In this document: piece by piece, positions 5,341-7,837 of the stretch
Layout: each line of letters opens with the position of its first letter
How positions within the stretch are numbered: position 1 is the stretch's first letter
Assembly (NCBI GenBank): GCA_030649345.1
Contig: JAUSKK010000021.1
Span: 1-7,837 of the forward strand
Direction of reading: 5' to 3'
Source of the DNA: Candidatus Iainarchaeum sp.
GTDB taxonomy: Archaea > Iainarchaeota > Iainarchaeia > Iainarchaeales > 0-14-0-20-34-12
DNA length: 7,837 nt
Position numbers and translations under genes: made by a program
The notes under the pieces: model-generated
What the model was told of the DNA's origin: nothing
Database searches by the model: none
The model's input: the letters and a program-made list of their open reading frames with translations, nothing else

Positions 5341-5420
5341 AATTAGATCGTGTGTTGGTTTTTTTTCCTTTTTTAAAATATTATACTAAAGTATATCCTT
5401 TCTTTTATTAATCATTTCCT

Positions 5421-5500
5421 CGGCCCCTTTTCTTTTTGGAAAAAAGAAAAGGTGTACGTTAGCCCAAAAGAAAAAAGTGCACTTCGTGCACTGGCGTGCG
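5421..5500 (+). ncRNA. Module copy B, free-standing outside any tRNA exon; candidate small RNA or 5' part of a long tRNA-Ser(GGA) precursor
   Basis: CGGCC; Y 5426-5437 CCTTTTCTTTTT; loop GGA; R1 5441-5452; linker TGTACGTTAGCCC; R2 5466-5476 AAAAGAAAAAA; hairpin GTGCAC-TTC-GTGCAC 5477-5491; TGGC. A/T boxes lie upstream (5371-5398) and T-rich tracts downstream (5513-5529). Confidence 0.5.
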
Positions 5501-5526
5501 GTTATTAATAATTTCTCTTTACTTTT

Positions 5527-5535
5527 CTTATAATC
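5527..5535 (+). promoter_or_regulatory. A/T box CTTATAATC, second copy of the 22-30 box
   Basis: Identical 9-mer about 90 nt upstream of the tRNA-Ser(GGA) 5' end. Confidence 0.3.
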
Positions 5536-5569
5536 GTATTCGGTACGTATTTGCATCTTAATGATGTCC

Positions 5570-5624
5570 GCGCTGCTGAGCAACAGCGAAAGCAGTGCTA
5601 AAGCGTCAACCGATTTTGCGGTTG
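5570..5624 (+). other. Structured 5' leader of tRNA-Ser(GGA) with two hairpins
   Basis: Hairpin 1 is GCGCTGCT (5570-5577) / AGCAGTGC (5591-5598) with 13-nt loop GAGCAACAGCGAA. Hairpin 2 is CAACCG (5607-5612) / CGGTTG (5619-5624). The tRNA starts 2 nt later. Confidence 0.5.
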
Positions 5625-5664
5625 TTGCAGAGATGGCGGAGCGGTCAAACGCACTAGCCTGGAA

Positions 5665-5868
5665 CGGCCTTTTCTTTCTTTGCGAAAGAAAGAAAATGTA
5701 CGTTGCCAAAAGAAAGAACTGTGTGCCTTTCAGGCACTGGCTTTCGATTGGTTGAATTAGTCCGGTATATTTCTGTGCTGCTTTAGCACGATTAAAACGT
5801 GTTCGTTTTAATGTGCATTAAGCCTTTGGCTTAATTGCAGCACGTGCTATCAACCGGCACCCCGGTTG
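5665..5868 (+). ncRNA. 204-nt structured intron of tRNA-Ser(GGA): module copy C, a three-way junction and a terminal hairpin
   Basis: Module 5665-5741. Closing stem GTGCTGC 5775-5781 / GCAGCAC 5837-5843 encloses hairpins 5786-5816 (13 bp, TGTT loop) and 5819-5833 (TAAGCC-TTT-GGCTTA). Terminal hairpin is CAACCGG-CACC-CCGGTTG 5851-5868. Confidence 0.75.
5670..5718 (+). repeat. Module copy C: Y 5670-5681, loop GCG, R1 5685-5696, linker TGTACGTTGCC 5697-5707, R2 5708-5718
   Basis: Y=TTTTCTTTCTTT, R1=AAAGAAAGAAAA, R2=AAAAGAAAGAA, the mirror of R1. Confidence 0.8.
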
Positions 5869-5916
5869 AGCTAGATCCTTTACGGGATACGCGAGTTCGA
5901 ATCTCGTTCTCTGCGA

Positions 5917-5928: not shown

Positions 5929-5978
5929 CCAACACTGACACACGAAGCTTAATATAGTACAGCTTCAGGAGTGTGAGT

Positions 5979-7226
5979 ATGAAGGAAAATTTGGGAGAAA
6001 CATTCAAAGACAAAGTAGACATCTATAACTATCCTAAAAAGATTAAACGTCAACTAGAGAAACTAAATGAATTAGATGCACATAATTCTAAACTAATTTT
6101 GGATTTCTATCGAACTTATTGCATTTCAAATAATCTAACCCATCCAAGAACCTTTAAGGCACTGAATACCCTTTACTTGATTGCAAAACGCACTCAATGT
6201 CCTTTAGACAATATTACGCTTGATGTAATTCGTGAACTAAAAGCTCAATTGCGAGAAAAAAAGTTATCTGACTTCACAGTGAATGACTATGTTACTCATA
6301 TCAAAACATATTTGATTCACTTAGATAAGAAGAAATATGCTGACTTACTGGATTCTAGGGAACTTAAGTTCATTGATGGATATAAAACAAAAGCAAAGCT
6401 TACGACTGATGACTTATGCAATGAACAAGACCTTAGAAATATTTTAACTGCCTGTAAAAACACGTATGAGTCTGTTTTGGCTTATTTACTTATTGAATCT
6501 GCTTGCAGAATTTCTGAGTTAATGAATATTCGAATCAAAGACTTAAAGTTTGATGAAAATGGATGTGACGCTGAAATTACTAAAAGTAAAACTGCAACAG
6601 GTGTTCGAACTATTCGTTTAGTTCAATCTCGTCAAATATTGCAAAAATGGCTTGAAGAACATCCACAGCGAACTGACAGAACTGCATTGGTTTTGCTTTC
6701 GCCTAAAGGAAGAGTTTATTCTTATGCAGCCGTGAAGAAAATTTGGAAAGCAGTAATCAAACGTGCTGGAATTGATGCAAGTAAGTTAACTAATTTTCAT
6801 GCTTATCGTGCTCTTCGCTACACTGCACTAGAATCTTCTGGTAAGTTGTCTCAAATGGAAATCAATATGCATATGGGTTGGAGTGCACAAGGTGGAGCTA
6901 GACAAGCTCAACGATACTCAAGACATTCTTACAATAACCTAAAACAAAAAATGAATGAATTAAATGGAATTATTAAACCTAAAGAAATTGAAAGAAAAAA
7001 TCAGTTTGAAAATAAAGTTTGTTTAAGCTGCTTTTCTGTTTATGATACAATCGCTATGTTTTGTAAAAAATGTAATATTCCATTAGATGAAAGTTTAAAG
7101 AAAAAGAAAGAATTATTCGAAAAAAGCGAACTAATCGAGTATGCTGCAGGAAAAGAAAAACTAAAACAATACATTTTCGAAATAATGGAAGAATACTTCA
7201 AAGAGAAAGGGGTTATTGCTGATTAG
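5979..7226 (+). CDS. Tyrosine recombinase / integrase with a C-terminal zinc-ribbon extension
   Basis: Catalytic pattern: R (ESACRISEL), K (TKSKTATGVRTI), H-x-x-R (FHAYRALR), W in place of the second His (MGWS), Y (QRYSRH). CxxC-x10-CxxC at 7020-7073. Start placed at ATG 5979, preceded by AGGAG (5967-5971), rather than GTG 5973. Confidence 0.85.
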   Translation: MKENLGETFKDKVDIYNYPKKIKRQLEKLNELDAHNSKLILDFYRTYCISNNLTHPRTFKALNTLYLIAKRTQCPLDNITLDVIRELKAQLREKKLSDFTVNDYVTHIKTYLIHLDKKKYADLLDSRELKFIDGYKTKAKLTTDDLCNEQDLRNILTACKNTYESVLAYLLIESACRISELMNIRIKDLKFDENGCDAEITKSKTATGVRTIRLVQSRQILQKWLEEHPQRTDRTALVLLSPKGRVYSYAAVKKIWKAVIKRAGIDASKLTNFHAYRALRYTALESSGKLSQMEINMHMGWSAQGGARQAQRYSRHSYNNLKQKMNELNGIIKPKEIERKNQFENKVCLSCFSVYDTIAMFCKKCNIPLDESLKKKKELFEKSELIEYAAGKEKLKQYIFEIMEEYFKEKGVIAD

Positions 7227-7821
7227 TTAACTTTTGTTTGTTTGATTTATTAACTAAATATACACTTATTTCTACAAATTCATTTATTTTATTTTCTTTC
7301 CACATCTCTAAGTCTTTCACGTATTTAATATTCCCTGTATTTTTTTTTCTAAAATTAAATTTGATTGAATGGGCATAGTCATTTATTTTTTGTTTTATTT
7401 TAGACTCACTGTCACTGCGTTCAATAGAAAAATTATTTGCAAGTTTTTTTATGGTTTGATTAAAATTATCTTTTTTTATAAGCTGAACTAAGTTAATAAT
7501 TAATTCATTAACTATGTCTTTGTTAACGCGTTTGTCTTCTATTAAGCCTTTACAAATATCACGTTCTAAATCAGCTACTTTTGTATCTTTTGCGGCGTTA
7601 TTTAAAAAAAATAACCTCGAAATTGGATTATTCCAATAATTGACCATTTTCTTAATAACTGTTCCTTTTTCATATTGCCAAATAATACTTTCTATTAAAA
7701 ATGATAAATCTGTGTAAAAATAAATAGTTTCTTTGTTTTTATTTGTTTTACTAATTTCCTTAGAAAAAAATGGTTGCGTTAAAAATTTGTTGAGCCATTC
7801 ATTTTTGTTTAAGGAATACAC
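7213..7821 (-). CDS. Hypothetical protein, Lys/Asn/Ile-rich, element cargo; N-terminus may lie beyond the window
   Basis: Long ORF convergent with the integrase and overlapping it by 14 nt. The annotated start is GTG, and the frame stays open upstream to 7837. Confidence 0.5.
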   Translation of the reverse strand: MYSLNKNEWLNKFLTQPFFSKEISKTNKNKETIYFYTDLSFLIESIIWQYEKGTVIKKMVNYWNNPISRLFFLNNAAKDTKVADLERDICKGLIEDKRVNKDIVNELIINLVQLIKKDNFNQTIKKLANNFSIERSDSESKIKQKINDYAHSIKFNFRKKNTGNIKYVKDLEMWKENKINEFVEISVYLVNKSNKQKLTNQQ

Positions 7822-7837
7822 AAGTTGTTGGTTTACG

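Follow-up and report, generated by a model that had tools for sequence, protein, structure and literature searches.

The tRNA-Ser(GGA) locus

The window analysed here is a complete contig of 7,837 nt from a metagenome-assembled genome (MAG) of Candidatus Diapherotrites (phylum Iainarchaeota, DPANN), and our subject is a repeat, here called the Y-R-R element, copies of which lie in the introns of two tRNA-Ser genes of this contig and in the 5′ flank of one of them. The tRNA genes, the two units with their element copies, stems and hairpins, and the integrase gene described below are all on the forward strand. The tRNA-Ser(GGA) gene is composed of exon 1 (5627–5664, tRNA positions 1–37) and exon 2 (5869–5915), separated at position 37/38 by an intron of 204 nt (5665–5868, referred to as unit C); the joined exons fold into an 85-nt class II cloverleaf with a long variable arm, the anticodon GGA within the anticodon loop CUGGAAA, and a discriminator G. 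ARAGORN reports no tRNA here with default settings, and when introns are allowed it reports one at 5626–5916 with the 204-nt intron, under a wrong name. A second intron-containing gene, tRNA-Ser(UGA), was located at 172–360 by repeat search and by ARAGORN with introns allowed; its exons (172–211 and 314–360) also join into a normal cloverleaf, and its intron (212–313) is 102 nt long. Both genes are thus interrupted at position 37/38 and restored by exon joining, as is characteristic of archaeal tRNA introns, and both are missed by default tRNA finders.

The 206 nt directly upstream of exon 1 (5421–5626, unit B) occupy the space between a divergent MscS gene and the tRNA. The initial annotation of this DNA, made from the sequence by itself, had described this segment as a structural paralog of the intron, such that the gene reads element, exon 1, element, exon 2. 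This order holds, and all of the motifs and coordinates on which it was based are present, including CGGCC at 5421 and 5665, TGTACGTT at 5453 and 5697, and the stems and terminal hairpins described below. When judged against 1000–2000 dinucleotide shuffles, the whole units align with a local score of 63 (18.2 ± 2.6 for shuffled sequences; z = 17, 0/1000), and the first ~80 nt taken separately give z = 13.6 (0/1000), indicating that the first ~85 nt of the two units are clearly homologous (z 14–17). The signal at the other end is smaller, with z = 4.2 (2/2000) for the last ~35 nt and z = 4.1 (3/2000) for the stem arms together with the terminal hairpin, so that the last 35–60 nt are weakly homologous, with a modest yet significant similarity (z~4); the similar 3′ stretch corresponds to the 3′ arm of the stem, a spacer, and the terminal hairpin next to the exon. 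The middle segments (5501–5600 and 5747–5845) have no similarity (z = -1.0; 912/1000 shuffles). The proposed paralogy therefore stands for the two ends, where the order of elements is also the same, and fails for about 100 nt between them. The middle of unit B is a 69-nt AT-rich spacer plus a 13-nt loop and that of unit C a 28-nt spacer plus a 55-nt insert with two hairpins, and because they are built so differently we regard the near-equal lengths of 206 and 204 nt as a coincidence.

Alignment shows that both units begin with a copy of the Y-R-R element. Copy B (5421–5477) consists of CGGCC (5421–5425), a pyrimidine tract Y (5426–5437), a purine tract R1 (5440–5452), a linker TGTACGTT-AGCCC (5453–5465), and a second purine tract R2 (5466–5477); its closing pair X2:X′5 is G:C. 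Copy C (5665–5718) starts with the first base of the intron and has CGGCC at 5665–5669, Y at 5670–5681, R1 at 5685–5696, the linker TGTACGTT-GCC at 5697–5707, and R2 at 5708–5718. A search for repeats revealed a third copy of this 5′ module at 212–273 (copy A), starting at the first base of the tRNA-Ser(UGA) intron, with CTGCC, Y at 217–230, R1 at 234–247, the linker TGTAAGTT-GCC at 248–258, and R2 at 259–273.

R2 is followed in all three window copies by a GC hairpin, located at 5477–5491 in copy B (GTGCAC-TTC-GTGCAC, then TGGC), at 5723–5737 in copy C (GTGCC..GGCAC, then TGGC, with compensatory differences from copy B), and at 276–289 in copy A, within the tRNA-Ser(UGA) intron. The paired bases differ among the copies (GUGCAC/GUGCAC, GUGCCU/AGGCAC, and GCGCC/GGCGC). 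A second stem is formed in unit B by GCGCTGCT/AGCAGTGC (5570–5598, arms 5570–5577 and 5591–5598) and in the intron by GTGCTGC/GCAGCAC (5775–5843, arms 5775–5781 and 5837–5843), where it encloses two hairpins to give a Y-shaped domain. Compensatory change had been pointed out in this second stem, and the changes from C:G to U:A and from G·U to G:C are real, although they come from a comparison of two sequences only; the GC hairpin is the better supported of the two structures by sequence comparison, as three copies in the window have it, each with base pairs of its own. A terminal hairpin is present at 5606–5624 in unit B (TCAACCG/CGGTTG, arms 5606–5612 and 5619–5624), 2 nt before tRNA position 1, and at 5850–5868 in the intron (TCAACCGG/CCGGTTG, arms 5850–5857 and 5862–5868), abutting exon 2; the CCGG of its 3′ arm in the intron is able to pair alternatively with CUGG of the anticodon loop. 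Folding of 5770–5868, which includes the Y-shaped domain and the terminal hairpin, gives -42.8 kcal/mol (z = -7.1, 0/200 shuffles), and the Y-shaped domain (5775–5843) has neither a counterpart in unit B nor an Rfam match.

A repeat family of Iainarchaeota

The 5′ module is not a duplicate confined to tRNA-Ser(GGA) and its own intron, as had first been thought: besides the tRNA-Ser(UGA) intron of the same window, it belongs to a family with 60 loci in Iainarchaeota (Diapherotrites) MAGs. These were found with a pattern fitted to the three window copies and run on GTDB contigs with one genome per species. The pattern matches three times in the window, where no match is expected by chance, and identifies 72 stretches in the GTDB genomes, of which 11 are bacterial and the rest archaeal, mostly from Iainarchaeota (Iainarchaeum/Diapherotrites MAGs). 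The 11 bacterial matches lack the hairpin and look like chance matches. When the fetched loci were scanned under relaxed criteria, 61 full copies were obtained, of which 55 are unique. The complete AR10 genome is at the low end with a single strict copy, and MAG STA_60 at the high end with 14 loci. A few full copies are in MAGs labelled as other DPANN (L020, L034 and L039, Aenigmatarchaeota; L037, Nanoarchaeia), which could represent either real spread or misclassified or mis-binned contigs.

The element does not correspond to any family that we could identify. No Rfam 15 covariance model, including those for group I introns and C/D box sRNAs, matches at E <= 1 over the window element, and on 32 other loci tRNAs are the only Rfam matches at gathering score; group I introns and other known RNA families were ruled out on this basis, and a C/D-box guide RNA in the intron was set aside since no convincing boxes were seen by eye and Rfam gave no match. 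A viral origin was likewise rejected, with no copies of the element among IMG/VR viral contigs. Neither the linker sequence nor triplex or mirror-repeat elements at tRNA genes of archaea gave anything specific in literature searches, and the Y-R-R element is apparently undescribed until now.

Three covarying tracts

The element is an interspersed repeat of about 55–65 nt that reads, from 5′ to 3′, C-X-GCC(C), the tract Y of 9–16 pyrimidines (for example TTTTCTTTCTTT), a loop of 2–5 nt, the tract R1, the linker TGTA-X′-GTT-GCC(C), and the tract R2. R1 is the reverse complement of Y, and 99.3% of 711 alignment cells are paired in the Y:R1 hairpin, with 12 pairs changed on both sides; none of 500 shuffles reaches the observed pairing and slid controls give 60–69%. 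The single bases X and X′ co-vary as Watson-Crick partners in the alignment (34 U:A, 13 C:G, 3 G:C, 2 U:G, and 3 mismatches), the G:C type being that of window copies B and C and of one CG08 copy.

R2 had been taken for a second copy of R1, and is instead its mirror image, such that R2 read 5′ to 3′ is the plain complement of Y; the structural reading therefore shifts from an alternative hairpin to a three-strand design. In parallel register Y(i) and R2(i) are complementary in 513 of 537 cells (95.5%), compared to 75.1 ± 1.2% when tracts are shuffled among sequences and 49–64% in slid registers, and the informative C/G cells agree in 80 of 87 cases. The signature of C/G positions is the same in all three tracts of 51 of the 55 unique copies, and falls into 24 signature classes. 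Five asymmetric copies with three Gs match the mirror model and contradict a direct repeat. A two-state switch, with R2 as an alternative hairpin partner of Y, was rejected because these asymmetric copies fit the mirror model only, and because fixed-register parallel agreement (501/524) exceeds the best-register antiparallel pairing (450/524). Joint change of the three tracts is also seen when one tRNA position is compared across genomes, as at the sites in Ser(GGA), Ser(UGA), Gly(GCC), and Gly(CCC), and their agreement is therefore maintained in place and does not reflect only inheritance from a master copy. Alignment of the copies thus shows a family with a covarying three-tract design.

A hairpin accompanied by a same-strand mirror tract is, as judged from sequence, an intrastrand-triplex design. 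The written strand has the order pyrimidine-purine-purine and would give a purine-type triplex (A.A-U/T, G.G-C) with the third strand antiparallel to R1; the complement has the order pyrimidine-pyrimidine-purine and would give a pyrimidine-type triplex (U.A-U, C+.G-C), following established pairing rules (PMC13541005; PMC4666352). R2 is left unpaired on both strands in secondary-structure predictions. Relative to the ITxF definition of such motifs (PMC4666352), the element has the three same-strand blocks following the triad rules (C-G.G, T-A.A) and stems of 9–16 nt, where at least 8 are called for, and departs from it in the loops, both of which should be of 1–6 nt: loop 1 is 2–5 nt, and the second connector is 11–13 nt and conserved.

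Placement at tRNA processing sites

Comparison of the positions of the 61 copies with ARAGORN tRNA calls places the first base of the element at a tRNA processing site in about 35 of them, far above what chance would give for pre-tRNA cleavage sites. Thirteen copies open an intron that follows position 37/38, element and intron sharing their first base, in tRNAs for Ser (four anticodons), Tyr, Arg, Glu, and Gly; eight lie 0–3 nt past a tRNA 3′ end; ten are inverted, with the first base 0–2 nt from tRNA position 1; and three or four inverted copies adjoin exon 2. The C-X-GCC end faces the tRNA in all cases, and orientation relative to neighbouring open reading frames (ORFs) is random (14/13/13/10 for the four arrangements). 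In one MAG (L017, 2951–3083 and 7296–7434) intronless tRNA-Ser(GGA) and tRNA-Ser(UGA) genes have a short element directly after the 3′ end, and the association with tRNA-Ser therefore survives the absence of an intron. The idea that the hairpin centre serves as a TATA box for tRNAs beside inverted copies was discarded, since its distance to position 1 varies with stem length.

The pairing at the splice junctions was examined in eight introns. The first base of the element is either the third nucleotide of the 5′ bulge or the next base, and the (C)UGC of the element pairs with GCA(G) directly upstream of the 4-bp central helix of the splice motif, a pairing by which the 5′ end of the element contributes to the splice-site helix. 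Canonical bulge-helix-bulge (BHB) motifs, defined as two 3-nt bulges separated by a 4-bp helix (PMC4090602), are present at AR10 (L021), L023, L043/L056, and L071. In the window, the tRNA-Ser(UGA) intron comes close to the canonical form: its bulges are AG|C and UU|A, CUU(G)/(A)AAG makes up the central helix, and UGC/GUA the outer one. No pairing between leader and trailer that would give a splice-like motif at the tRNA ends was found in the 3′-trailer cases inspected.

A sister family, variants and signs of spread

A sister family of 16 copies has the form [A/G]GCC, Y, loop, R1, GCC[T/C]TGGG, and mirror R2, followed by a further hairpin, and obeys the same mirror rule with its own A..T / G..C covariation. 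Wherever the tRNA context is recognisable (nearly all 16), it is in sense orientation right after a 5′ splice site or a tRNA 3′ end; its loci are L006, L010, L014, L019, L022, L042, L048, L051, L053, L069, and L070. Some tRNAs, such as Gly(GCC) in three MAGs, are interrupted and flanked by both families. There are also variants lacking the Y tract (L016, L034, L038, L039, and L073), in which R1, linker, and mirror R2 are kept and an unrelated GC-rich hairpin precedes them, and tandem partial copies composed of linker and R2 (L013, L017, L038, and L069). In the STA_60 / STB_123 / DeMMO3_25 clade an AT-rich, TATA-like motif, YCCTGAAYYTTTGRTAAACA, is positioned at a fixed distance after R2 (L005, L015, L026, L036, L041, L046, L050, L051, L057, L066, L069, and others); start codons lie 6–25 nt beyond it, and on the other strand it is ~70 nt upstream of tRNAs.

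Identical 55-nt copies occupy unrelated loci within STA_60 and within STB_123. At L008 (4170–4330) the element plus 37 nt is flanked by a 25-bp direct repeat (ATGAAAAGCCTTGTTTTGTACGA) that duplicates a gene start, and at L022 (1035–1160) and L030 (5160–5290), two loci of a 51%-GC MAG, the flanking direct repeats are of ~18 bp (GATTGAAAyyACGCCGCC). The genes neighbouring the element are ordinary housekeeping genes. There is no enrichment for transposases among 100 ORFs within 1.2 kb, which matched 102 ordinary families with integrases appearing only twice, and on the same survey we dismissed an association with transposases or integrases. Nor does the element have the terminal inverted repeats and fixed-length target duplication of a miniature inverted-repeat transposable element (MITE), as its ends are C-X-GCC and a purine tract and repeats flanking it were observed at L008, L022, and L030 only.

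Genomic context of the window

The gene content of the window is archaeal, with a CTP-dependent riboflavin kinase, two DMRL-synthase-fold proteins, an MscS channel, and an inositol monophosphatase. Outside the element, a tyrosine integrase gene (5973–7226; Pfam PF00589, E = 2.7e-14) starts 57 nt past the 3′ end of tRNA-Ser(GGA). GC content in the integrase region (5973–7837) falls to ~25% past position 7000, and this region probably marks one end of an integrated mobile element, with tRNA-Ser(GGA) as the attachment site; the contig stops short of the other junction of this putative element. We sought close relatives of the source organism in which conservation of the upstream copy could be evaluated, and found none using integrase and MscS homologs or a metagenome scan: there is a single integrase homolog with 26% identity, the best MscS homolog is 47% identical, and the metagenome scan for the TGTACGTT subtype gave the already known CG08 locus and nothing else.

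A proposed place in the discarded parts of tRNA precursors

We favour the interpretation that Y-R-R is a structured repeat, interspersed in the genome and carried by segments that tRNA precursors lose on processing, and put its probability at about one half. The wider evidence thereby suggests something close to an early proposal, in which an RNA element rides on tRNA precursors. The element would live in an intron, a trailer, or a leader, from which the splicing endonuclease, RNase Z, or RNase P would take it out without harm to the tRNA; it would fold into a compact, self-contained structure, and its clean removal by these enzymes may be the reason that it persists. The tRNA-Ser(GGA) intron would then be a composite unit of element, GC hairpin, variable middle, stem, and terminal hairpin, and unit B a second, diverged copy of this composite, presumably put into the 5′ flank by duplication or insertion at the DNA level. 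If transcribed, unit B would constitute a 5′ leader with a structure of its own, the last hairpin of which stops 2 nt short of the RNase P site, and it would leave with the leader at the RNase P cut and not by splicing; it would resemble in this the inverted copies of other loci, in which the hairpin likewise lies against tRNA position 1. There is an AT-rich box near 5371–5386 and there are further AT-rich boxes at 5503–5537 inside unit B; unit B may be transcribed from the former, or else the tRNA promoter may lie within unit B itself, at 5503–5537.

Several observations weigh against this interpretation. About 26 copies are intergenic with no RNA gene nearby, and tRNA processing is therefore not the whole story. 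Retention at the same tRNA positions in distant genomes, together with three-way covariation in place, argues for function over a passenger status, and the alignments point to a selected structure with a role, not a purely passive passenger. On the transcribed strand, all three window copies allow only a purine-type triplex (A.A-U, G.G-C), and purine-type triplexes are poorly supported for RNA. The splice motif of tRNA-Ser(GGA) is imperfect or relaxed, with a CUGG/CCGG helix, two bulges of 4 nt each, and an outer helix of 2–3 bp, the order of pairing at the junction being anticodon stem, CUGG/CCGG, and GCC/GGC. Finally, we found neither a transposase nor a regular duplication of the target, and no mechanism of spread emerged.

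One alternative, which we consider doubtful, is that the element acts in DNA, forming an intrastrand triplex or H-DNA in single-stranded or supercoiled DNA and serving as a barrier to transcription or replication, a pause site, or a recombination hot spot near heavily transcribed tRNA genes; roles of this kind have been discussed for bacterial intrastrand-triplex repeats. Purine/pyrimidine mirror repeats are the hallmark of DNA triplexes, G·U pairs are nearly absent from the stem (3/720), the orientation is random relative to protein genes and of both kinds beside tRNAs, and the variable copy number, flanking repeats, and tandem partial copies echo the instability reported for the E. coli triplex motif (PMC4666352). 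It is difficult to reconcile a DNA-level role, however, with a first base that coincides with processing sites defined at the RNA level only, or with the sister family being sense-oriented to the tRNA wherever the context can be recognised (nearly all 16 copies), and a barrier within an intron would hinder synthesis of the tRNA itself. A quite improbable variant on the RNA side is a triple helix resembling that of MALAT1/MEN-beta, which would protect an RNA end made by tRNA processing, as the MALAT1 3′ end is produced by RNase P (PMC13541005). Here the complementary strand would be read as U-rich tract, linker, U-rich tract, loop, A-rich tract, and then the tRNA 5′ end, and RNase P cleavage would leave an upstream RNA that ends in a blunt U.A-U/C+.G-C triple helix. 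This is exactly the layout of ten copies, in which the A-rich tract stops 0–2 nt before tRNA position 1; a co-directional gene ends 19–125 nt upstream in four of eight of these, and the A/U-rich composition with isolated G/C is that of known RNA triple helices. The opposite orientation is nevertheless that of all three window copies, of 21 of the 35 tRNA-linked copies of the first type, and of nearly all sister-family copies, and 26 copies have no tRNA nearby; moreover, in most of the ten cases the first U-rich tract is closely preceded by AT-rich TATA-like boxes, and a start site set by them would fall in the linker and exclude the third strand from the RNA. In the window the purine tracts are not beside the tRNA 5′ end, and the layout of a MALAT1-type element for nuclear expression (ENE) occurs only on the opposite strand of the ten copies elsewhere.

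The proposal that the upstream 206 nt are the gene's own intron, transposed to the 5′ boundary and excised by the splicing endonuclease, is very unlikely. In its favour, the units share homology at their 5′ and 3′ ends, a similar hairpin closes each of them beside an exon, tRNA introns of archaea have been proposed to transpose in Thermoproteales (PMC4090602, citing Fujishima 2010 on transposing introns), and the gene is adjoined by an integrase, integration of mobile elements having been linked to intron gain (PMC3293823). There is, however, no BHB-like pairing at the boundaries of 5421–5626 above that of shuffles: the best duplex between the junctions is -10.6 kcal/mol (shuffles -11.1 ± 2.9) and a fraction of 0.54 of shuffles is at least as good, whereas for the two real introns the same test gives fractions of 0.08 and 0.03. 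The junctions do not pair as a splice motif and intron-like excision is therefore unsupported, and with it the view of unit B as a leader processed like an intron. The left flank of unit B is not exon-like, and as the family is genome-wide, independent insertion with local sequence exchange explains the similarity equally well. We attach as little probability to a portable promoter and terminator cassette, in which T-rich tracts would terminate transcription on both strands and YCCTGAAYYTTTGRTAAACA after R2 would act as a bidirectional TATA box. In its favour, the element often fills whole intergenic gaps, 0–2 nt after stop codons and 10–14 nt before divergent start codons, YCCTGAAYYTTTGRTAAACA keeps its distance from R2 with start codons beyond it, and TATA-like boxes are found upstream of inverted copies at tRNAs. 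Such a role gives no reason for the base-by-base mirroring of R1 by R2, though, and termination right where an intron begins would cut the tRNA short; the distance of the hairpin centre from tRNA position 1 varies (about -19 to -25), so that it cannot be a fixed TATA box, and the window copies lack the YCCTGAAYYTTTGRTAAACA motif.

Relationship to known systems

The closest known kind of element is the bacterial intrastrand triplex repeat, represented by TMECO/BoxC of E. coli (Hoyne et al. 2000; Holder et al. 2015, PMC4666352). These share with Y-R-R the same-strand order of pyrimidine, loop, purine, loop, and purine, and are multi-copy and mostly intergenic, with a copy number that varies strongly among related genomes and no function assigned. 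The Y-R-R tracts are A/T-rich whereas those of TMECO/BoxC are G/C-rich, and the second loop is a conserved linker of 11–13 nt (TGTA-X′-GTT-GCC) in place of 3 nt; Y-R-R also differs in its covarying closing pair, its archaeal host, and an end set at tRNA processing sites or inside tRNA introns, while TMECO/BoxC has no reported tie to tRNA processing. Archaeal BHB tRNA introns (Marck & Grosjean 2003; Fujishima et al. 2010; reviewed in PMC4090602) resemble the window introns in their location at position 37/38 and in the occurrence of similar introns in different isoacceptors, and the 5′ end of Y-R-R supplies a bulge base and the outer helix of the splice motif. However, at 102 and 204 nt the window introns are long compared to the 11–129 nt given in the review (PMC4090602), the module is not restricted to introns but occurs as well beside tRNA ends, in either orientation, and between genes, and its three-tract design is unrelated to the splice motif.

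In MALAT1/MEN-beta an ENE and an A-rich tract are followed by a tRNA-like RNase P substrate, a logic shared by the ten complementary-strand copies (U-rich, U-rich, A-rich, tRNA); the window copies and most others are oriented the opposite way, and the third strand is joined by a simple linker and does not sit in an internal loop of a stem. Repetitive extragenic palindromes and bacterial interspersed mosaic elements (REP/BIME) and MITEs resemble it in being short and structured and in having many intergenic copies, identical ones at unrelated loci among them, but Y-R-R has no terminal inverted repeats, regular target duplication, or nearby transposase, and has a mirror tract besides the palindrome.

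Three-way covariation of two complementary tracts and a mirror tract across dozens of copies, and between genomes at matching tRNA positions, is rare direct sequence evidence for a selected long triple-helix design, and the element offers a concrete, synthesisable test object of ~60 nt. Its docking at tRNA cleavage sites joins non-B nucleic-acid structures and archaeal tRNA processing, two fields that seldom meet. It is conceivable, though unlikely, that Iainarchaeota carry dedicated A/U-rich triple-helix elements of at least two families in their tRNA precursors, released or positioned by tRNA-processing enzymes, with the inverted ones shielding upstream RNA 3′ ends at the RNase P cut; if so, this would be an independently evolved archaeal counterpart of the MALAT1 mechanism and the first case in Archaea of a natural long purine/pyrimidine triple helix that shows three-way covariation. 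Because element-bearing long introns defeat standard tRNA finders, tRNA-Ser and other genes have likely been missed in DPANN annotations. That one module can open an intron, follow or precede a tRNA as trailer or leader, or lie free between genes also bears on the origin and spread of archaeal tRNA introns.

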